Shown: piece by piece, positions 6,029 to 46,339 of the stretch
Layout of the letters: each line of letters begins with the position of its first letter
Position numbering within the stretch: the first letter of the stretch is position 1
Origin: an uncultured Syntrophomonadaceae bacterium
GTDB lineage: Bacteria > Bacillota > Dethiobacteria > DTU022
Assembly: GCA_964585925.1 (NCBI GenBank)
Contig: CAZPFS010000001.1
Span: 48,221-112,220 of the forward strand
Direction: 5' to 3'
Length of the DNA: 64,000 nucleotides
The notes under the pieces: generated by a model
Databases searched by the model: none
Seen by the model: only the letters and a program-made list of their open reading frames with translations
What the model was told of the DNA's origin: nothing
Translations under genes and position numbers: made by a program

Positions 6029-6520
6029 ATGCGTGCAGATCCCGGTGAAGAGATCTCTGAAAATAAAAAGGAAGCAGTTACAGACAAAAAGAAAAAAAAT
6101 TATATGTACATTATGTCCGGAGTGATCATCGTCGGCATACTGGCCGCAGCGGCCTGGTTCCAGTTTGGAAACGGGACATTTCCCTGGTCAAAAAACAACT
6201 TGCAGAAGCAGGAAGTACCGCGATATTTGATTCCGGTCAAAGAATTGCAGGTCAATCTGGCTGACAAAGGATCCCGTCGCTATATCAGATTTAAAATCTA
6301 TCTCAGCAGCAGTGACAAAGATCTGATGAAAGAGGTTGAACAGAGGGAACCGGAGCTGCGCTCCTGTCTGATCACGATCCTGCGCAATACCGCGGTGAAC
6401 GAACTTGATGGAGAAAATGGAATGGCCCTGTTGAAAAACGAGATCCTGGAACAGGCCAATTCCCTGTTTGCCACCGGGAAGGTAGAAGAAGTTTTTTTTG
6501 ACGAGTTTATTATTCAATAA
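6029..6520 (+). CDS. fliL: Flagellar basal body-associated protein FliL
   Basis: Single TM, VNLAD motif, C-terminal VEEVFFDEFIIQ; follows motB. Confidence 0.88.
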   Translation: MRADPGEEISENKKEAVTDKKKKNYMYIMSGVIIVGILAAAAWFQFGNGTFPWSKNNLQKQEVPRYLIPVKELQVNLADKGSRRYIRFKIYLSSSDKDLMKEVEQREPELRSCLITILRNTAVNELDGENGMALLKNEILEQANSLFATGKVEEVFFDEFIIQ

Positions 6521-6534
6521 AGCGAGGACCGGAG

Positions 6535-6906
6535 ATGGAACAAAACCGAACTAAAGCCGAACCATCATCTCACACCTGTAACCCGGAGCCGAAGGAGGAA
6601 CCGACAGTACAAAAAGTAGAGTTCCACCCGCTTCAGCCCGCGGGCGGCGCTTCCCCAAAACGGGAAATACACCTTGCTTTTTTGGAGGTAGGTCTGAAAT
6701 TGGAGGCCGAACTGGGAAAGACCAGCATCAAAATAAGGGATTTGATTGATCTGGAGGAGGGCTCGCTTTTGAAATTAAACCAGCTGGCAGATGAAAGTGT
6801 AACCATGCTGGTGAATGAAGTGCCCTTTGCAATGGGAGAGATTGTGGTGATCAACGATCATTTTGGGGTCAGAATCACCTCTTTTATTCACGGACAATCG
6901 GAATGA
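6535..6906 (+). CDS. fliN: Flagellar motor switch protein FliN (copy 1)
   Basis: SpoA/FliN domain (AELGKTSIKIRDLIDLEEGS...GEIVVINDHFGVRIT). Confidence 0.85.
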   Translation: MEQNRTKAEPSSHTCNPEPKEEPTVQKVEFHPLQPAGGASPKREIHLAFLEVGLKLEAELGKTSIKIRDLIDLEEGSLLKLNQLADESVTMLVNEVPFAMGEIVVINDHFGVRITSFIHGQSE

Positions 6907-6935
6907 TTGTATAACCGGAACAGGGGACGATGTGC

Positions 6936-35444: not shown

Positions 35445-36830
35445 CTATAAGCCGGCTCTCGCGGTGGACCTTCTGAAATCAGCAATCAGCTCTTGGCGAT
35501 TGGCAGGCCCTGTTTTCTTAAAAATATTGCCCACATGGAACTTGACTGTACTTTCGGAAATATAAAGGGCAGCGGCTATCTCGGCATTTGATTTGCCCTG
35601 TATGATTAGGCTGAAAATCTCTTCTTCACGCCCCGACAAATTATAGTGGGTTACATACGCGGTGAACCGTTGCCGTTCCTGAGCCTCCGGATTTATATCC
35701 GGCTCGTACAGTCTTTGGTAAAGCATGAAGAAAAGGACTACCAAAAGAATGGAAATTACACCAGTAAAGAGGATTAGCGGTGTACCGGTAAGTTGTTCGG
35801 AACCCAAGGTGCCGGCTGCCTCGCCCAAACGGCCGGCGGCAAGCCCCAGGGCGGCCAAGGCCGGAAGGTTCATATTTTCCGATATGTCAGCAAAAACAAT
35901 CGCCCGGAAAACTGATAAATACCCCAGAAAAAGATAGGCCATCACCCACATTATGGTCACTCCGGTCAAGTTTTCGCCAAGGGCCAAAGCTAAGAAAGGG
36001 AAAACCAGCGCTGCCAGGCAGGATACTCCACCCCAGCGGCGGCTTTTGTCACTGATAAACCCGGCAACAATAAGCCCGATGGCGTAAAAGGCCCGGGTAA
36101 GCTCTATATATACACCGCCGCCGGCGGCGCTACTCAGCGGAAATGAAAACCCCAGCATATTTAACGTGAACATCAGGAAGACCACTGCAGCCATCAAAGG
36201 GAGGAGCCCCCGGCTGAGGTGAAATCTCAATCGAGAAGGGTTTTGTGTTTCCGGGGGAAGAGGAGGGAGGAGCCACAGAAGCAACAGAGATAAAAGAAAA
36301 AGTATAGCTAAAGCAATAAAGCTCTGATTGTTCCAGAGATAACGCCCACCCATCGGCAGGGATAACAGCCAGGTCCCCAAGCTGCCCAGAGCGTAGGCGG
36401 AGCCGTAAAGAAGCCCCCGCCGCTGCCGGGGGATATCGGTGGACAAGCGGGTTAGATAACAGCCGGAGAGAAGGCCGATCGCTATATTAAGTACTATCCC
36501 GGCGGTGATGACGACTTTTAACGAAGGCGAAAATGCAGCCAGAGCGGTGCTGGCAATCAAAACCACGCTGGCACCTAAGGGCAGCCCCCGCCCTCCGGCA
36601 AAGCGGGGCTGTTTGGCGAAAAGTAATGATGTTACACCAACTCCGGCGGCCTGAAAGAGATAGTATAGCCCACAGACCAGCAAATTGGCACTGCTGCCGT
36701 CGAGAAAACCCAGCAGGCGGTAGGTCTGCATAATATATGCGGTTCCGCTCCATAAAAAATTAACGCCGATTAGAGCAGCGACAAATAAAATATGGAGCCT
36801 TGATTTTCTTCTTGTGCAAATCCCGTTCAT
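35445..36830 (-). CDS. 12-TM (MFS-like) sensor fused to a LuxR-family HTH
   Basis: About 12 hydrophobic segments with GFISDKSRR in a loop; C-terminal LSGREEEIFSLIIQGKSNAEIAAALYISESTVKFHVGNIFKK. Confidence 0.85.
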   Translation of the reverse strand: MNGICTRRKSRLHILFVAALIGVNFLWSGTAYIMQTYRLLGFLDGSSANLLVCGLYYLFQAAGVGVTSLLFAKQPRFAGGRGLPLGASVVLIASTALAAFSPSLKVVITAGIVLNIAIGLLSGCYLTRLSTDIPRQRRGLLYGSAYALGSLGTWLLSLPMGGRYLWNNQSFIALAILFLLSLLLLWLLPPLPPETQNPSRLRFHLSRGLLPLMAAVVFLMFTLNMLGFSFPLSSAAGGGVYIELTRAFYAIGLIVAGFISDKSRRWGGVSCLAALVFPFLALALGENLTGVTIMWVMAYLFLGYLSVFRAIVFADISENMNLPALAALGLAAGRLGEAAGTLGSEQLTGTPLILFTGVISILLVVLFFMLYQRLYEPDINPEAQERQRFTAYVTHYNLSGREEEIFSLIIQGKSNAEIAAALYISESTVKFHVGNIFKKTGPANRQELIADFRRSTARAGL

Positions 36831-37053
36831 TGCCCAACCCCCTATTCCTATTTATCTAATAATTATCATATATTGAACAAATATCCAAGGGGAAGGTTAT
36901 CGGCGCTTACCTGGACTACTACCATACCTTCTGTTTAGGGAACTATACTTTTTCCAGCCTATTCCCGGAAAGGGGTTTGCCGATAAAAATATGTATATAG
37001 ATATAAGTGATGGTCAAAGAACATTTAAACCATAATTATGGGAGGTGGCCTTT

Positions 37054-37503
37054 ATGAAAAAAAATAGGCTATTGAGAATCAGGTTTCTAGTTGCGGTTGT
37101 AACTATTTTAACGTTGGGGATGGCTTTTTCCACGGTATCGGCGGGGGTGAGTGGCGAGGGAGGCGGTCCTAGTAATTTAGGTGACCCGGATTCTATTGAG
37201 GGGGCTTATGTGGGTCAGGAAACAATTCCGGGGAATGATGAAGGAACGGGGGGGGAATCCGCTTCTGGGAATGGTGAAAGGACGGGAAAGGAGGAATCCT
37301 CCTCGGGGAATAATGGAGGGGAGGAGGCTCCGCCCGAATCTTCTACTGACGGTGAAGAAGAGGAGGCTACTATCCTAGTGAGCGAAGCTCCAGAGGAACT
37401 TCCCCGCACCGGGGGTAGCTACCAGCCCTACCTGGCCGGCGGTTTTTTCTTGGTTCTAGCCGGCTTGGCGCTAATATTTAATAAATATTTTGAGTTTGTT
37501 TAA
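37054..37503 (+). CDS. Small sortase-anchored surface protein (LPRTG)
   Basis: Signal peptide, Gly/Glu/Ser-rich acidic body, ELPRTGG followed by a TM; RBS GGGAGG before ATG 37054; directly upstream of a sortase. Confidence 0.75.
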   Translation: MKKNRLLRIRFLVAVVTILTLGMAFSTVSAGVSGEGGGPSNLGDPDSIEGAYVGQETIPGNDEGTGGESASGNGERTGKEESSSGNNGGEEAPPESSTDGEEEEATILVSEAPEELPRTGGSYQPYLAGGFFLVLAGLALIFNKYFEFV

Positions 37504-37508
37504 CTACT

Positions 37509-38171
37509 ATGGGAGAGCGTAAGCAGAGGGTCAGGGGGGCATTACGGCCACATTTAACCCTTTTGGGAGGGGTAATTATTCTGGCCGGGGTTGCCTTGGC
37601 CCTTTCCCCTTTTTTAAAAACCGCTTACTTGCGAAGCAGCAATAACCAGGCCCTGAATGCTCCGGTCCCCTTGCCTGAACACGAAAGGATAGATCTATCT
37701 CCCCCTTCATCCACTTTGCCCCCTCCCCCGGAAATCCCTCGAGTCCTGATCCCCGGAGAGGGGGTATTAACCATACCGGCCCTAAATATAGAAGTTGGGG
37801 TGGGTTACGGAGTGGAGCCGGAGGATCTAAATAGGCAGCCTGGTTTCTATCCCCAAAGCCAGCCTCCCGATCAAGGTAATGTCTGCATCGCCGGTCACCG
37901 GCTTACCTGTGGCGACTGGTTCCTCCATCTGGATCAGTTAAGTCCGGGGGATGATATTTTGCTTCTTTACCAGGATAGATTATATAGCTACCGCGTTGAA
38001 AGGGTTTTTGTTATCGCCAACGATGACTGGGAAGTAATCGCTCCCACTAGCTTCCCGGTGATTACCTTAACCACTTGCCACCCCCCAGGCCGGCATACGG
38101 AACGGCTTGTTGTCCGGGGTTCCCTGATCGATATTAAAAATAATGGTGGCACCTCTGAGGAAGGGCTTTGA
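37509..38171 (+). CDS. Sortase (class D/E-like)
   Basis: N-terminal TM; catalytic triad motifs IAGHR, ITLTTC and RLVVRG. Confidence 0.9.
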   Translation: MGERKQRVRGALRPHLTLLGGVIILAGVALALSPFLKTAYLRSSNNQALNAPVPLPEHERIDLSPPSSTLPPPPEIPRVLIPGEGVLTIPALNIEVGVGYGVEPEDLNRQPGFYPQSQPPDQGNVCIAGHRLTCGDWFLHLDQLSPGDDILLLYQDRLYSYRVERVFVIANDDWEVIAPTSFPVITLTTCHPPGRHTERLVVRGSLIDIKNNGGTSEEGL

Positions 38172-38800
38172 TTGCCTAGGAGTTAAAGGCAAATTCCATT
38201 TTGAATTCCTTAAATAATTTTATTACATGTTGATGGAATAAATTAAGGCCGAAATCAATATCACAAATTATTTGTTCTTCAACATATTCTCCATATTTAC
38301 TCCGCCGGTAATGGCTAGGTCATCTACCAGCCCGCCTTTAAGAGATTCTGGTGTATATAACGAACCACTGTAAGAAAGTGACTACTGTTTTCAACCACTT
38401 CACTTCCGTAATGATCCTGGCATTAAGAACCCCGGTGACCATATTTCCAGTTATACCAATAGACATAACTAGCACCAATACGCCTAAAAGCAATGACCAG
38501 GTTTTCTGTTTCTTCCTTCATTAGCAAATGAAGGTGATTGTCCATCAAACAATAAGCGTAAATTACATAGCCGCTCTTTTTTGGGTGTATTTTTAATGTG
38601 TCTATGTGCTTTCGATAATCTTCATCATCTTCAAAATATATTTAATGGTTAATAACCCCTTCGCATCACGTGATAAATTCCAGTGCTGCTTTTCTCCCTC
38701 GCTGAGTGGAGATAGGATCAGTGCCTAGACTATGATCGGAATGTTAGGCTAAATGATACTGAGGCTAACAAATTTATTGGAAACGTATCCGGTGTCCTTA
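38172..38800. pseudogene. Decayed REP-associated tyrosine transposase (RAYT, Y1 HUH), apparently split by an inversion
   Basis: Minus strand about 38185-38710 reads AREKSSTGIYHVMRRG / FEDDEDYRK / YAYCLMDNHLHLL (HUH) / RRIGASYVYWYNWKY / LTVVRYIHQN, with stops and frameshifts. Plus strand has TTG-CCT-AGG (MPR) at 38172 and DQCLDYDRNVRLNDTEANKFI from 38716. Confidence 0.75.
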
Positions 38801-38848: not shown

Positions 38849-39553
38849 TCAGTTAGAATTAGCGGCAGATATAAACTCCCGTATTTCGTCAACCGGCTGA
38901 TAAAAAATATCCTGAACAGGCCCCAACTGCTTAATTTGGCCCTCTGCCAGTACAACAATTCTATTTGCAAGTTCCTGGGCCTCGTTAAAATCATGGGTGA
39001 CATAGATCATCGTTAAATTTAACCGGCTGTGAAGCAATACTAATTCCTTACGGATATTTTTAGCAGTAGTAGGGTCTAGACTGCACAGCGGCTCATCTAA
39101 AAGCAAAATCCTTGGTTCCAGGATGATGGAACGTGCTAACCCAACCCGTTGTTTTTCACCACCGCTTAGATCTCTAGGATAACGCTTTTTTAAATAGGTT
39201 ATATGAAGAAGATCCAGGATCTCTTCAACCTTTCCAGTTATTTTACCAGCCTGGCAGGCACCAGCCCGCAGGCCAAAAGCAACATTGTCAAAGGTATTCA
39301 GGTGGGGAAACAGGTGGATGTCCTGAAACAGATAGCCTACATTACGCCTTTCTGTGGAGACATTGTTCATATTTTCCTGATTGAAATACACGTCACCTTT
39401 GTATTTTGTCAAACCTGCAATCACATTGAGTAGCGTGCTCTTGCCCGCGCCGGTAAAACCCAACACCGCCATGAGTTCACCGGCCTCAATATCCAGGTTT
39501 ATATTTTTCAGGCAATATGGTGTGCTAATATTTCGTAAACAAATAAAAGACAT
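38849..39553 (-). CDS. ABC transporter ATP-binding protein (CysA/ModC/WtpC-like)
   Basis: GFTGAGKST, FQDIHLFPHL, LSGGEKQRV, LLLDEP, YVTHD. Start at ATG 39553 after GGAGG; no C-terminal regulatory domain. Confidence 0.88.
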   Translation of the reverse strand: MSFICLRNISTPYCLKNINLDIEAGELMAVLGFTGAGKSTLLNVIAGLTKYKGDVYFNQENMNNVSTERRNVGYLFQDIHLFPHLNTFDNVAFGLRAGACQAGKITGKVEEILDLLHITYLKKRYPRDLSGGEKQRVGLARSIILEPRILLLDEPLCSLDPTTAKNIRKELVLLHSRLNLTMIYVTHDFNEAQELANRIVVLAEGQIKQLGPVQDIFYQPVDEIREFISAANSN

Positions 39554-39555
39554 TT

Positions 39556-40308
39556 TTACCTCCAGGCACCTGTAATTCTGTTTTCCAACCACAAAAACAA
39601 TCGCTCGAAGATGGAACACATCAATGACAATACAACTAAACAAACCATAATAATATCAACTCTGATCAAGTTTTCTGCATTATTCAACAGGGCACCAATC
39701 CCCGTGGGGATGGCAAACATTTCTGCTGCAATAACCGTGCGCCAGACCATTCCTGCTTCCAGTCGCAGACCGGTAAAAATATTGGGCGAAGCCATCGGAA
39801 GTATAATATGCCAAAGGATGTACCACGAAGATGCCCCAAGGGTACGGGCAGCTTTTATATACTCTCGTTTTACCTCTTTTATTCCCGTCAGAGTGTTGTA
39901 AGTTACCGGGAAAAAAGCGCAGATAAAAATCAGGGTAACGGGTAAGGCCTCATTAATGCCAATCCAGAGCATTAACAGCGGCAGCCACCCTAAAGTCGGG
40001 ATTGGAAACAATATACTTATCAGCGGTCCCAAACTGCGTTCCACAACCTTGTTTATCCCCATAATCGTACCCACAAACAATCCGGCCAGGCTTCCCAAAA
40101 TATAGCCGACGAGGACCCTCCCGAAGCTTGCTCCCAGGCTTTTTAGAAGTATCCCGTTATTTAGAAGAGAGCAAAATTCCTTAAACACCTTGCTTAAAGG
40201 TGGAAATAACGGCGTTTGGGTCACATGCCCTGCTATTTCCCATAAAACAAGAAATAAGCCTATGGGGACAAGTGATAAACAGTGGTCCTTTGATATTTTT
40301 CGCTTCAT
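39556..40308 (-). CDS. ABC transporter permease (SsuC/TauC/NitT type)
   Basis: PPLSKV...SFGRVLVGY, IPTLGWLPLLMLWIG, EAA loop (YIKAARTLGAS), WRTVIAAEM. Confidence 0.88.
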   Translation of the reverse strand: MKRKISKDHCLSLVPIGLFLVLWEIAGHVTQTPLFPPLSKVFKEFCSLLNNGILLKSLGASFGRVLVGYILGSLAGLFVGTIMGINKVVERSLGPLISILFPIPTLGWLPLLMLWIGINEALPVTLIFICAFFPVTYNTLTGIKEVKREYIKAARTLGASSWYILWHIILPMASPNIFTGLRLEAGMVWRTVIAAEMFAIPTGIGALLNNAENLIRVDIIMVCLVVLSLMCSIFERLFLWLENRITGAWR

Positions 40309-40327
40309 TAGAAGCTCATCCTTTACC

Positions 40328-41356
40328 CTAATCAACCGCCATTATCTCTTCCGCAGCAAAAGATTTCGTTAAATATCCCAGGGCATACATCTTGTCGATA
40401 ACAGATTGTACCTCTTTAATGTTGATATCCGGTGTCATTTTTAGATTGCTTATAGATTCAGCGGCAAGTTCAGGGGTTACTTCCAGATTAGCCTCCGGAC
40501 TTTGCGTCTCTTCTTTTACCATGGCCTGGTTTATGTTAAGATTCTGAGCTACAATTGCGGCAGTTTCCTGCGGATTTTCATTCATCAGCCTCATGCTTTT
40601 CAGATTAATCTCTTTCAATTTTTCTACAGTTCCCGGCTGATTCTTTAATAAAGCATCCGTGACCACAAGAACGCTTCCCTGCATATCCGGCCAGATATCG
40701 GCACTTTTTAGCAGCATTCTCATCCCGGGATACGAGGCGGCCAGGGCTGCAAAATGTTCAGGAACAAATACGGCATCGACTTTGCCATTGCGCAAGGCCA
40801 TAAGCTGTTTGGCCGCATTCATCCGTACTGTATTGGCCATAATCCTTTCAGGATTCAGGTTTTCTTTTTCAATTAGAAGTATTTGCAAAAAATCTGTTGT
40901 AGTTCCCTGTGGACCATTGGCTGTCTTAATTCCAACCCTCTCAAGATCGCTTATTTCCTTAATTTTGGTACCGTTTACTACCAGCCCATAACCGTTCTTA
41001 TGCGTACCAGAAATTATTTTGATAGGCACGCCCCCATTGGCATAAGTAAAGATCGCAGGAACCAAACACATATAACTGGCATCGAACCCTCCCTTGGTGA
41101 AGGCTGCAGCCACCCCTACGCCACTGGCATATACCTTGACATCATTTATCTTAATGCCCGCCTCTTGAAAAAGATTTTTCCCCTGGGCATAATAGAAAGC
41201 AGCTGCGTGGTCAGTATACTCAACCGCAACATTAAGACTGATCTCTTCTTCATGGGGCTCCTGAATTACAGTTTTTATTTGGGTCTGGCTGCAGCCAACA
41301 ATCAAAAATAATAAACTTCCAACGATAAAATAACAAATAAACTTCTTTTTCATCAT
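40328..41356 (-). CDS. ABC transporter substrate-binding lipoprotein (NitT/TauT/SsuA/NMT1-like fold)
   Basis: Lipobox LIVGC; pattern DHAAAFYYA..KNLFQEAGI, GKVDAVFVPEHF, IWPD...SVLVV typical of NrtA/SsuA-class proteins. Confidence 0.82.
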   Translation of the reverse strand: MMKKKFICYFIVGSLLFLIVGCSQTQIKTVIQEPHEEEISLNVAVEYTDHAAAFYYAQGKNLFQEAGIKINDVKVYASGVGVAAAFTKGGFDASYMCLVPAIFTYANGGVPIKIISGTHKNGYGLVVNGTKIKEISDLERVGIKTANGPQGTTTDFLQILLIEKENLNPERIMANTVRMNAAKQLMALRNGKVDAVFVPEHFAALAASYPGMRMLLKSADIWPDMQGSVLVVTDALLKNQPGTVEKLKEINLKSMRLMNENPQETAAIVAQNLNINQAMVKEETQSPEANLEVTPELAAESISNLKMTPDINIKEVQSVIDKMYALGYLTKSFAAEEIMAVD

Positions 41357-41430
41357 TATCCGGACTTAATCTATTTCTCCTCTCGGCGTTTGGAACATAA
41401 CCTGGGTTTAAGTAAAAGAACTGAACAAAT

Positions 41431-41467
41431 AAAAAAGGGCTCCGATTAAGTAAGGTTATCGAAACCC
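41431..41467 (-). terminator. Intrinsic terminator in the ABC operon leader (riboswitch expression platform)
   Basis: Minus strand GGGUUUCGAU-N11-AUCGGAGCCC followed by UUUUUU. Confidence 0.75.
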
Positions 41468-41490
41468 GCCAATAATGTTTTTCGTTTCAG
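41446..41490 (-). other. Candidate 14-codon leader ORF with CUG start (KRKTLLAGFDNLT)
   Basis: AGGAGG 6 nt upstream of CTG; the ORF covers the 5' arm of the terminator and stops at the loop/3' arm junction. Confidence 0.35.
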
Positions 41491-41493
41491 TGA

Positions 41494-41635
41494 TTACCTC
41501 CTTTCCAAAACCAAGGGAGGGCAAACTGTTTCCAGCTAGCCCCAACCATCAGTTGATGGTGGGCAGGCTCCCATAAACATTGCTTCCAGGCAGGCGCCTG
41601 AAAAATGTTCTCCAGGGAAGATGGCTTAGAGATAA
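41494..41635 (-). ncRNA. Moco (molybdenum/tungsten cofactor)-class riboswitch
   Basis: 142 nt. P1 UUAUCUCU/GGAGGUAA, 5' CUCUAAGCC, internal hairpin ACCAUC-AACU-GAUGGU, GNRA stem AGCUG-GAAA-CAGUU, and 3' GCCCUCCC...UGGAAAGGAG matching the Moco motif's conserved 3' signature. Confidence 0.85.
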
Positions 41636-41658
41636 ATAAGTATTGTTATCTTGAGTCA

Positions 41659-41687
41659 ATTATATTACAAGCCTTATACTTAGACAA
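41659..41687 (-). promoter_or_regulatory. Sigma-A promoter for the riboswitch-ABC operon
   Basis: TTGTCT-N17-TATAAT on the minus strand, about 25 nt upstream of P1. Confidence 0.7.
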
Positions 41688-41693
41688 GTATAA
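41674..41693. promoter_or_regulatory. Palindromic operator candidate overlapping the -35 box
   Basis: TTATACTT-AGAC-AAGTATAA: perfect 8-4-8 inverted repeat. Confidence 0.5.
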
Positions 41694-41714
41694 CCCTTCG
41701 GCTTTGGATCGCTG

Positions 41715-42946
41715 GGTAGATTGCAAGTTTAATTGCCCACCATATTTTACCAGCCACACTAAGCTGCCAGGTAAATGTCATTGGCTGTTTTGTATCCAAA
41801 CATTTTTCTTGGATAATTATTCATCCATTGCTCAACTCGCCTGATGTCGCGAGCAGTTAATTTGCCGATGTCCGTTCCCTTGGGAATGAAGCGGCGGATT
41901 AACTTGTTGGCATTTTCGTTACTGCCCCTCTCCCATGCGCTGTAGGGGTGGGCGTAGTAGCAAATGGACCGATTCTTTCCCGCCCGCAGGCAGGACGCCT
42001 CAAGGCTTTTACTGTCTATGAACTCACTTCCGTTATCCATGGTGAAGCTCTTGAACCGCCTGCTGAACTGGCCCCTGTGTTTTCTCTCAAGCCTATCCAG
42101 TGCTTCTTTTACGCTTTGCTGCCTCTTGTTCGGGATCTTGCAGATCAGCTCCCTACGGCTGACACGCTCCGTCATCACCAGCAAGCAGGCTTTCCCGCTC
42201 CCCACAACCAAATCCATTTCCCAATGCCCGAGCTCTTCTCTGTTGTTGACCACTGCCGGCCTTTCTTCGATGCTGCGCCCTTTGAGATTATTAATGGCTA
42301 CCTTCCGGACATTTCGGTATTTGCGTTTCTTGCCCTTTCTTTTAACCGGTAGATTCTTGTTTGTAAGATTCAGGAAATCCCCTCTGTCTATCATGTTGTA
42401 CACTGTCTTTGTGCATAGCGTTACCTCAAAGGCCAGCCCTTTAGTTTTGATTTCACCTAAGGCCGCATCGGGTGAAAAATTATCCTCACCTATGCGCTTT
42501 TCTAAATGCCGGGCCAGCTTATGGTCATGCCCAATTTTCAATCCACGGCCTTTGTTCGCTGCATTTTCCCGCGCTCTTCGCTGTCCAACATCCGCTGCAT
42601 ATACCTCTTCATCCCAGAAGTCCTTTATGGCAGGATTGCGGCTTGCATACGGGTTCTCCCGCCGTTGCGTGAAAGTCCCACGCCTGATCTCCCTTTCAAT
42701 TGTCCTGCGGTGACGTCCCAGTATCCTAGCGATCTCCCCTGGTTTGTACCCTTCACCTAGAAACCCCTCAATTTTGTACCGTTCTTTTTCGCTTAGATGC
42801 TTCCACCTTTTACAGCCCGTGATATGATTGTCTTGGCCCATCCTACGCCACCTCCGTTGCCTGTTGTGTGCAACTTCAGTGTAACTGATCTGGCTCTGGA
42901 TGGGCTGTTTTTTTACAACCCTGGGCAATTCATTTTACAATTATCC
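41715..42946 (-). mobile_element. IS30-family insertion sequence with a 16-bp target-site duplication
   Basis: Imperfect 25-bp IRs (GGTAGATTGCAAGTTTAATTGCCCA / GGATAATTGTAAAATGAATTGCCCA) flanked by direct repeat CGGCTTTGGATCGCTG at 41699-41714 and 42947-42962. Confidence 0.9.
41759..42841 (-). CDS. IS30-family DDE transposase
   Basis: HTH (HLSEKERYKIE...LGRHRRTIEREIRR), GHWEMDLV, TMDNGSEF, WERGSNENANKLIRRFIPKG. The ORF-track start at 42928 lies inside the IR, so ATG 42841 is preferred. Confidence 0.93.
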   Translation of the reverse strand: MGQDNHITGCKRWKHLSEKERYKIEGFLGEGYKPGEIARILGRHRRTIEREIRRGTFTQRRENPYASRNPAIKDFWDEEVYAADVGQRRARENAANKGRGLKIGHDHKLARHLEKRIGEDNFSPDAALGEIKTKGLAFEVTLCTKTVYNMIDRGDFLNLTNKNLPVKRKGKKRKYRNVRKVAINNLKGRSIEERPAVVNNREELGHWEMDLVVGSGKACLLVMTERVSRRELICKIPNKRQQSVKEALDRLERKHRGQFSRRFKSFTMDNGSEFIDSKSLEASCLRAGKNRSICYYAHPYSAWERGSNENANKLIRRFIPKGTDIGKLTARDIRRVEQWMNNYPRKMFGYKTANDIYLAA

Positions 42947-43351
42947 CGGCTTTGGATCGCTGTGAACCCCCTTTTTTGCCCCCTACCCGATCAAATTACC
43001 AGAATTGCCCAGGCGCTAACCGCCAGAGATGAAATTTTATTAGATAACACGCTACTGTTTTCGAGATATTTTGAACCGTGTCACACTCGAACAGTTTACT
43101 GGTAAATTCACCGGCTACCTTGGATGGTATAATGAGCACTTTAAAATCCCACTCGTAATAACCAAATTAATTACAGCCGGAACATTGAACAACTAACTGA
43201 AGAGTCTAAAAAGGGGAGGAATAGAATTGAGGATTTCATGGAATATTGATTCACTACATGAAGCATTAACAGGAGATTATAAACGCGCTCAGCTTAAATT
43301 CCTCCGTATATTTTCTCCTTGCTTCTCCCACTTCCCTGAACACCTCCTGGG

Positions 43352-46263: not shown

Positions 46264-46339
46264 TGGCAGGGGAGAGAGGACTTGAACCCCCAGCCTACGG
46301 TTTTGGAGACCGTTGCTCTGCCAGTTGAGCTACTCCCCT
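46264..46339 (-). tRNA. trnW: tRNA-Trp (CCA)
   Basis: 76 nt AGGGGAGTAGCTCAACTGGCAGAGC-AACGGT-CTCCAAA-ACCGT...GGTTCAAGTCC...CCCCTGCCA; anticodon CCA, encoded CCA end. Confidence 0.97.

Follow-up and report, generated by a model that had tools for sequence, protein, structure and literature searches.

A Moco riboswitch precedes a NitT/TauT-type ABC transporter operon with family-wide genomic links to molybdenum

In a 64,000-nucleotide stretch of contig CAZPFS010000001.1 from an uncultured Syntrophomonadaceae bacterium (hereafter the window), a riboswitch of the molybdenum cofactor (Moco) class and an intrinsic terminator lie directly upstream of an operon encoding a substrate-binding protein (SBP), a permease, and an ATPase of an ATP-binding cassette (ABC) system of the NitT/TauT type. 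Molybdenum genes recur beside relatives of this operon, here termed NMT1-type, and we consider it very probable that the operon serves molybdenum metabolism. It probably represents an ABC importer serving Moco supply and shut off by the Moco-sensing riboswitch via premature termination, with molybdate or a close inorganic form as the likeliest substrate. The riboswitch class itself is known, and the novelty lies in a molybdenum-regulated ABC importer built on a different family of SBP and permease. Prokaryotes are known to take up molybdenum and tungsten mainly through ModABC, WtpABC, and TupABC, MolBCA being a minor fourth route. Literature searches returned no description of the NMT1-type transporter family, nor of a Moco riboswitch before a NitT/TauT-type system; the searched literature was incomplete, and an earlier mention, for instance in regulon databases, is possible. 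The gene-context table of Regulski et al. 2008 holds no TauA, TauB, TauC, COG0600, COG1116, or DUF364 entries (PMC2408646), and the annotation of the SBP family says nothing beyond “NitT/TauT substrate-binding protein”.

A Moco riboswitch and terminator before a NitT/TauT-type operon

A covariance search with the Rfam Moco RNA motif (RF01055) returned a match at window positions 41482–41643 on the minus strand, the strand of all operon features described below, with a score of 54.0 bits against a gathering score of 36 (E 3.8e-10) and an alignment spanning the whole model (positions 1–135). Across the 64 kb, this motif and one transfer RNA (tRNA) were the sole Rfam matches at the gathering threshold. 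The initial annotation, made from the sequence without database searches, had called a Moco riboswitch upstream of an SBP–permease–ATPase operon, and the covariance search bears this out. The aptamer comprises P1 to P5; its P4 is capped by a GAAA tetraloop, and its P2 is extended by an insertion of 23 nt. The conserved junctions CUC[CU][GA]AG ... CCUCCC ... GGAAAGGAG and the GAAA loop were recovered by Rfam, regular expression, and model alignments, and together with the above-threshold score over the full model and the P3 stem of the Moco-type subclass they place the RNA in this family. Between P1 and P5, the Rfam alignment, the sequence, and a model-based alignment all show P2, P3, and P4, the optional P3 that had been tentatively proposed being a 6-bp hairpin (ACCATC-AACT-GATGGT, 41545–41560). 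The length of 142 nt given earlier needs correction: from one P1 strand (5′) to the other (3′) the aptamer, with its P2 insertion, spans 134 nt, and the stretch matched by Rfam spans 162 nt. A second covariance model, made in this analysis from four riboswitches with the window aptamer left out because its P2 insertion upsets the MAFFT alignment, scored this aptamer at 41.2 bits. Covariation was assessed on seven distinct related riboswitches. Of the cells, 89% are paired, and compensatory changes affect 21 of 34 pairs, a count reached by none of 500 shuffles; slid controls pair 37–48%.

Directly downstream of the aptamer, an intrinsic terminator (GGCGGGUUUCGAU/AUCGGAGCCC followed by U6; 41431–41470) can be read from the sequence and recurs in minimum-free-energy folds. 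Its core is a 10-bp stem (GGGUUUCGAU/AUCGGAGCCC) inside these arms, with an 11-nt loop and the U6 tract, and it is missed by a simple terminator scanner with a loop limit of 8 nt. Of the promoter and terminator initially described, the terminator thus held up, and the promoter is a consensus match only: the sigma-70-like sequence TTGTCT-17 nt-TATAAT (41659–41687), separated by ~15 nt from the downstream aptamer and by 24 nt from the end of an IS30-family insertion sequence (IS), is one of 10 such sites in the region versus 7.3 expected. The aptamer-plus-terminator fold of the leader is predicted at −71.7 kcal/mol versus −63.2 kcal/mol for an alternative pairing, which becomes the best fold in constrained and truncated folds from which the terminator 3′ arm is withheld, and which joins positions 41575–41562 with 41470–41457. 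Because the P2 3′ strand (UAUGGGAGCCUGCC, 41562–41575), a candidate anti-terminator, can thereby pair with the terminator 5′ arm in the window fold, the predicted geometry is that of an OFF switch, and the riboswitch is likely to act in the OFF direction by premature transcription termination, which fits a product feeding cofactor synthesis.

The first gene (40328–41356) encodes a 342-aa SBP lipoprotein with a lipobox (LIVGC, Cys22) and an NMT1/SsuA fold; a Shine–Dalgarno-like sequence (GAGAGGAG, 41377–41384) lies 20 nt before its ATG at 41356 and 23 nt before a second ATG at 41353, an unusually long spacing. The SBP matches Pfam NMT1_2 at 68.5 bits (cutoff 24.7), scores 106.5 with the NCBIfam model SsuA_fam (TIGR01728), under the cutoff of 163.5, and has SaoX as its second-best NCBIfam match (55 versus a cutoff of 300). 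A Pfam scan of the SBP gave no match to PF13531 (ModA/WtpA) or PF12849 (TupA) at E ≤ 1e-3. The 250-aa NitT/TauT-type permease (39556–40308; Pfam BPD_transp_1, 102 bits) is 93.6% identical to its homologue in Dehalobacterium formicoaceticum, and its best NCBIfam matches are SaoP (155.5, cutoff 295), TauC (154.6), SsuC (124), and NtrB (111), none of which reaches cutoff. The 234-aa ATPase (38849–39553; Pfam ABC_tran, 119.5 bits) is 87% identical over 228 aa to the Dehalobacterium homologue and is without a C-terminal TOBE/Mop domain; its best NCBIfam match is WtpC (234 versus a cutoff of 440), and the CysA/ModC/WtpC-like character first ascribed to it reduces to generic ABC similarity. Start codons were set by homologue alignment (ATG 40308 for the permease and ATG 39553, preceded by GGAGG, for the ATPase), and the longer open reading frame (ORF) starts listed at 40335 and 39643 overshoot these. 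With an NMT1/SsuA-fold SBP, a TauC/SsuC/NtrB-like permease, and one ATPase in a single operon, the system belongs with the NitT/TauT-type importers (Transporter Classification, TC, 3.A.1.16/17) and not with Mod, Tup, or Wtp, as had been proposed.

A distinct SBP family amid molybdenum genes

The comparison drew on 90 related loci (87 of them clustered with the window), which came from the best 80 of 416 metagenome matches and from a few genomes; many of the contigs are short. ORFs were called crudely in all loci, clustering thresholds were arbitrary, and recurrent clusters were named with Pfam and NCBIfam. For neighbor counts, SBPs were collapsed at 90% identity into 59 groups, and same-strand neighbors were considered. 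A molybdenum-linked neighbor was present in 48 of the 59 groups, in keeping with the idea that SBP homologues elsewhere would be tied to molybdenum genes, and 6 of the 11 groups without one were contigs of <2.5 kb. DUF364 proteins (27 groups) and ModE-like regulators (26) were the commonest partners, followed by MocA, the Moco cytidylyltransferase (17), XdhC-family maturation factors (11), a 339-aa protein with a MoCF_biosynth (molybdopterin-binding) domain (11), YqeB (10) and YqeC (9), both above their NCBIfam cutoffs, DUF4213-DUF364 proteins (9), true ModA (TIGR01256, above cutoff; 7), ModB-like permeases (7), and divergent HTH_17+PBP_like regulators (5). In 110 further neighbors, the top 25 Pfam families included no recurrent moaA, moaC, or moaE.

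In a search of all loci with the covariance model made here, with which a regular expression agreed, the Moco riboswitch was found in 5 of the 59 groups, namely in four lineages before the NMT1-type operon and, in L018, as a pair before wtpA. Outside the window, it lies directly upstream of the SBP gene in Dehalobacter (L004/L005; 79 bits with Rfam) and in a metagenomic lineage whose SBP is 72% identical (L016/L017), and in L074/L076 (SBP 43% identical) it precedes a MoCF_biosynth gene and then the SBP gene. In these three lineages, each riboswitch is followed by a terminator-like hairpin and U-run, and the arrangement is free of IS elements; the expectation that SBP homologues elsewhere would follow Moco riboswitches was thereby confirmed. 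The element is not universal in the family, as an Rfam scan of three metagenome-assembled genome loci (L001–L003) detected no riboswitch. A P3 insert occurs in all four riboswitches preceding an NMT1-type operon; the stem has 6 bp in the window RNA and 5 bp in those of L004 and L016, and is weaker in L074. P3-containing riboswitches have been reported to accompany Moco genes, and P3-less ones tungsten-cofactor genes (Regulski et al. 2008, PMC2408646). Because the P3 pattern agrees with this published correlation, which is no measurement on the present RNAs, the transporter would stand on the molybdenum rather than the tungsten side.

Tandem P3-less Moco-class riboswitches were observed before a true WtpA–WtpB–WtpC operon in L018 (5294–5401 and 5459–5570) and L088 (9736–9843 and 9901–10012). 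In L088, from Desulfoscipio gibsoniae, and in the near-identical metagenome contig L018, the order is HTH_1 regulator–DUF364–SBP–permease–ATPase, followed by the tandem riboswitches and WtpA (408 bits versus a cutoff of 355). A tungstate-specific importer was judged less likely, with P3 in four of four operon riboswitches and WtpABC adjoining under P3-less riboswitches in these two loci.

The ModE-like regulator is usually 127 aa long, comprises the ModE N-terminal DNA-binding domain only, and falls under the TIGR00637 cutoff; the ModE of L028 is full-length with a Mop domain and scores above it. Several of the regulator assignments (ModE N-domain only, HTH_17+PBP_like) are below-cutoff matches or rely on domain architecture alone. 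The HTH_17+PBP_like architecture is that of the Desulfovibrio tungstate-responsive regulator TunR. Three separate control elements related to molybdenum or tungsten, i.e., the riboswitch, the ModE-like regulator, and the HTH_17+PBP_like regulator, precede the operon in different lineages; this responsive control and the linkage to molybdenum, tungsten, or Moco genes agree with the functional class of molybdenum/tungsten uptake systems.

NMT1-type genes are also interleaved with mod genes, as in L021 (modB-SBP-permease-ATPase-DUF364-modC-modA), L028 (modE-modA-SBP-permease-ATPase-modD), and both L024 and L089 (modA-mop-modB-modC(-tauE)-SBP-permease-ATPase), L089 being the locus retrieved with the SBP that NCBI names Sulfurospirillum barnesii. 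In L089, two small TauE/SafE-family anion-permease genes (6105–6922) lie between modABC and the NMT1-type operon. DUF364 has been reported beside molybdate, tungstate, and vanadate ABC transporters (PMC2954201), and is present in a Methanococcus maripaludis mod operon whose genes are cofit with nifH (bioRxiv 10.1101/2024.03.05.583561). Other neighbors are less readily placed. In the clade nearest the window (L004, 5518–7659; L006, 5747–7879; L014/L015), the transporter operon is separated from the divergent HTH_17+PBP_like regulator by an odd but conserved pairing of genes for an AbrB-family membrane protein and GAPDH, and in Dehalobacterium formicoaceticum (L006, 12565–17026, minus strand) Nitro_FeMo-Co (NifX/NifB-like) proteins, CbiA/ParA-type Fe-S ATPases, and a second DUF4213-DUF364 protein adjoin the transporter.

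Judged from its sequences, the SBP family is small, tight, and distinct. When 1.84 billion representatives (50% identity) were searched with a profile built from 31 members, 64 matched at E ≤ 1e-30 and 7,938 at E ≤ 1e-3; no NCBIfam model captures the family. A large protein search yielded 208 SBP homologues, the named ones from Dehalobacterium, Dehalobacter, Desulfoscipio, Acidaminobacter, Thermosyntropha, Moorellaceae, Synergistaceae, and Sulfurospirillum. The family signature reads AVEYTDHA, YMCLVPA, GTHKxGYG, VPEHF, and WPDMQGS in the window SBP, and the residues common to the family are A-V-E46-x3-H50, Y95-x-C97, H119-x2-G-Y123, P-E200-H/Q, W222, and G227-S228. In a confident AlphaFold model (predicted local distance difference test, pLDDT, 90.9), the conserved E46, H50, C97, H119, Y123, E200, and S228 fall at the C-terminal ends of strands or the N-terminal starts of helices, and from this secondary-structure map the Glu/His/Cys/Tyr signature should line the binding cleft.

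The top Foldseek matches of the SBP are TauA, 3un6, a thiamin-binding SBP, SsuA, ThiY, and PqqT, all at 15–17% identity, and a sequence search of the PDB found nothing closer than E 7e-8. Profile–profile alignment (hhalign) to co-located ModA gave 95% probability over 83 columns only, a generic similarity, and 8.7% for the PBP_like domain of neighboring HTH_17+PBP_like regulators. The possibilities that the SBP is a disguised ModA, or kin of that regulator domain, were rejected on this generic or absent profile similarity. Distant family members score 108–142 with SsuA_fam, under its cutoff, and a neighboring CC-motif clade 198–343. This nearest outgroup (P0161, P0170, P0176–P0196) is SsuA_fam-positive, carries an invariant CC dipeptide aligned to the family's G227-S228, and has G at position 97 and N/Q at position 119. 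Its CC dipeptide resembles the SaoX cleft motif, and the clade may be another metal-related SBP group.

Substrate, regulation, and alternative readings

In the mechanism that we favor, transcription would start ~10 nt before the aptamer. With Moco (the P3-type ligand) bound, P1 to P5 would stay folded, and the downstream hairpin and U6 would terminate transcription; with no ligand, the P2 3′ strand would pair with the terminator 5′ arm, letting RNA polymerase read into the SBP, permease, and ATPase genes. The lipoprotein SBP would then capture an extracellular molybdenum species, most likely molybdate or a related inorganic form poorly handled by ModA, and deliver it to a TauC-like permease acting as a homodimer and powered by the ATPase. 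We infer import rather than export. An inorganic (or chelated) molybdenum species is the reading favored by the ModE-type regulators, DUF364, and the interleaving with mod genes. Of the initial proposal that the operon imports Moco or its tungsten counterpart, a pterin precursor, or molybdate or tungstate by an unrecognized route, the molybdenum role has gained support, and the emphasis on molybdopterin and Moco has gained no direct support.

Several observations weigh against an importer of molybdate regulated in this way. True ModABC or WtpABC is often encoded right beside the NMT1-type operon; plain molybdate or tungstate would then be redundant, which argues for a different species. The predicted pocket, with a conserved Cys and two His, appears unlike known oxyanion sites, and neither Pfam nor profile–profile comparison found specific similarity of the SBP to ModA, WtpA, TupA, or the PBP_like domain. 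The window's own 64 kb holds no detectable DUF364, ModA/B, ModE-like, HTH_17+PBP_like, MocA, XdhC, YqeB/C, or MoCF_biosynth protein, leaving the riboswitch as the only local context. Finally, thermodynamic folds of the L004, L016, and L074 leaders show terminators and no obvious alternative pairing, an anti-terminator being clear in the window alone.

Some of these points would be met by an unrecognized importer class with a substrate other than free molybdate, i.e., salvage of a pterin (cyclic pyranopterin monophosphate (cPMP), molybdopterin (MPT), or Moco), or uptake of thiomolybdate or chelated molybdenum via the Cys/His/Glu pocket. A non-molybdate substrate would explain retention of the transporter beside ModABC and DUF364 in anaerobes, and we hold this class of explanation to be possible, if tentative.

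Within it, pterin salvage strikes us as unlikely. Here, the SBP would bind molybdopterin, cPMP, or Moco from anoxic surroundings, and adjacent late-step genes and ModABC would metalate and finish the pterin. The NMT1/SsuA fold does carry cofactors and heterocycles, as top Foldseek matches bind thiamin (4nmy), formylaminopyrimidine (FAMP; 3ix1), and pyrroloquinoline quinone (PQQ; 9b1u), and the conserved SBP pocket is rich in aromatic and polar residues. The recurrent neighbors cover late Moco steps only (the MoeA/MogA-like MoCF_biosynth protein, MocA, XdhC, YqeB/YqeC), separate import of pterin and metal would predict co-location with ModABC, and a Moco OFF switch suits a precursor importer. 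The ModE-like regulators, however, suggest control by metal and not by pterin, and DUF364 elsewhere partners oxyanion transporters. That moa genes are absent from the loci is weak evidence, as their usual place is elsewhere in the genome. Both the marked lability of free MPT and Moco and the lack of any known bacterial pterin-cofactor importer count against salvage.

An importer of thiomolybdate, the molybdenum form dominant in sulfidic anoxic habitats, or of chelator-bound molybdenum appears quite improbable. In its favor, members of the family occur solely in strict anaerobes and in metagenomes from sediments or digesters, the conserved Cys/His/Glu pocket resembles direct metal or sulfur ligation, and the nearest relatives of permease and SBP are the CC-motif SsuA-family clade and the SAO system of Haft. 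Such a substrate would also explain why ModABC is retained alongside. Azetidine carboxylate is a building block of nicotianamine-type metal chelators. The sole characterized DUF364 enzyme cyclizes an S-adenosylmethionine derivative to azetidine carboxylate (PMC12930334), and the chelator could perhaps come from the co-operonic DUF364 enzyme. This proposal is, however, wholly inferential: DUF364 also occurs in ordinary modABC operons, the window and several other loci are without it, and no exporter or further biosynthetic genes recur.

The YqeB and YqeC neighbors, which relate to maturation of selenium-dependent molybdenum hydroxylases, raise a further alternative, namely that the transporter imports a selenium or sulfur compound for maturation of the hydroxylase cofactor, and not molybdenum itself. 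NitT/TauT systems classically carry sulfur compounds, the SBP pocket has a conserved Cys, and ModABC alongside would supply the metal. Yet the clade nearest the window lacks YqeB and YqeC, and neither selD nor other selenium genes are recurrent among the neighbors. The ModE-like and HTH_17+PBP_like regulators and the Moco riboswitch point to molybdenum, tungsten, or the cofactor rather than to selenium or sulfur, and the commonest partners, DUF364 and the ModE-like regulator, likewise speak against this reading, which we regard as very unlikely.

The setting of the operon in the window bears on a last alternative. A complete-looking IS30-family element occupies 41711–42950, with a transposase gene at 41759–42928 (minus strand; 389 aa, NCBIfam 225 bits versus a cutoff of 80) and imperfect 29-nt inverted repeats at 41711–41739 and 42922–42950; its end lies 24 nt upstream of the operon −35. 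Directly downstream of the ATPase gene, a frameshifted Y1 (IS200/RayT-type) transposase remnant (…YAYCLMDNHLHLLMKEE…YIHQN…; 38230–38640, minus strand) was recognized by eye, and relatives carry DUF364 at this place. DNA similarity to the nearest relative, Dehalobacterium formicoaceticum L006, is 87% and confined to 41359–38834, the three genes, and the operon has a G+C content of ~43% versus 47–53% in much of the flanks. The copy in the window lacks DUF364 and is minimal, with mobile elements on both sides. An ordinary transporter of sulfonate, nitrate, or another nutrient might thus have come to lie behind a riboswitch misplaced by rearrangement beside IS30, and the nearby IS30 end, the transposase remnant, the homology limited to three genes, and the lack of any other detected molybdenum gene in the window would agree with this. 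We nonetheless find it most improbable, as the same arrangement occurs without IS elements in three other lineages, the family falls under the SsuA_fam cutoff, and 48 of the 59 groups are molybdenum-linked. An orphan riboswitch left from a displaced gene was likewise rejected, given the recurrence in three other lineages and the linked groups.

Further along the window, a 461-aa protein with MFS-like membrane segments and a C-terminal LuxR/GerE helix-turn-helix (35445–36830, minus strand) would be an unusual membrane-bound LuxR-type regulator. A gene pair on the plus strand (37045–38171), encoding first a small LPXTG-like surface protein and then a sortase (Pfam Sortase, 94.7 bits), points to a Gram-positive host, and a tRNA-Trp (CCA) lies at 46264–46339 (minus strand).

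If the transporter carries a molybdenum species, genome-based predictions of molybdenum and tungsten use in anaerobes miss a transporter, which would concern organohalide respirers, syntrophs, sulfate reducers, and Sulfurospirillum, among others. A pterin, thiomolybdate, or chelate as substrate would instead make the operon a new kind of cofactor or trace-metal acquisition, with a bearing on molybdenum supply in sulfidic sediments. As the family is small, has a well-defined signature, and has cultured carriers (Dehalobacter restrictus, Dehalobacterium formicoaceticum, Desulfoscipio gibsoniae, Sulfurospirillum barnesii, S. deleyianum, and Acidaminobacter hydrogenoformans), the question is directly testable.

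Comparison with known systems

The cofactor-salvage SBPs ThiY (FAMP/hydroxymethylpyrimidine (HMP)), the thiamin-binding 4nmy, and PqqT (PQQ; 9b1u) share the fold of the NMT1-type SBP and set a precedent in which uptake of a ready-made cofactor, or of a precursor, is placed under the control of the corresponding pathway. They differ from it in sequence (15–16% identity), and there is no sign of a pterin ligand in the NMT1-type transporter.

The transporter of the SAO system (SaoP, SaoX, SaoB; Haft 2022 preprint) has been proposed to bring an organometallic substrate into anaerobes. Our permease has SaoP as its best NCBIfam match and the SBP has SaoX as its second-best, both systems occur in anaerobes only, and both have Cys in their SBP pockets. 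However, the scores are far under the cutoffs (155.5 versus 295 and 55 versus 300), the NMT1-type SBP has no CC/CU motif, positions 227–228 being G-S throughout the family, and the MerB-like, SaoT, SaoC, and SaoE partner families are not among the recurrent neighbors.

With SsuABC and TauABC (TC 3.A.1.16/17), the NMT1-type systems have in common the gene order, the type of permease and ATPase, and the SBP fold, with target-normalized Foldseek TM-scores of 0.76–0.84 to TauA (6ssy) and SsuA (3e4r/2x26). They differ in SBP sequence (15–17% identity; SsuA_fam 106.5, under the 163.5 cutoff) and in the conserved pocket residues, and among the loci examined they never occur with ssuD, ssuE, or tauD, molybdenum genes being found instead.

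ModABC, WtpABC, and TupABC differ in parts: the NMT1-type SBP has the NMT1/SsuA fold and is neither PF13531 nor PF12849, its pocket has Cys and His, the permease is TauC/SsuC-like and not ModB-like, and the ATPase is without TOBE/Mop. Shared with these systems are the genomic setting and control. Both are SBP-dependent ABC importers found behind a Moco riboswitch, ModE-like regulator, or HTH_17+PBP_like regulator, some of the known systems being under Moco or tungsten-cofactor riboswitches; and the NMT1-type operon is co-operonic with DUF364, adjoins Moco genes, and in L018 and L088 stands beside WtpABC under its P3-less riboswitches.

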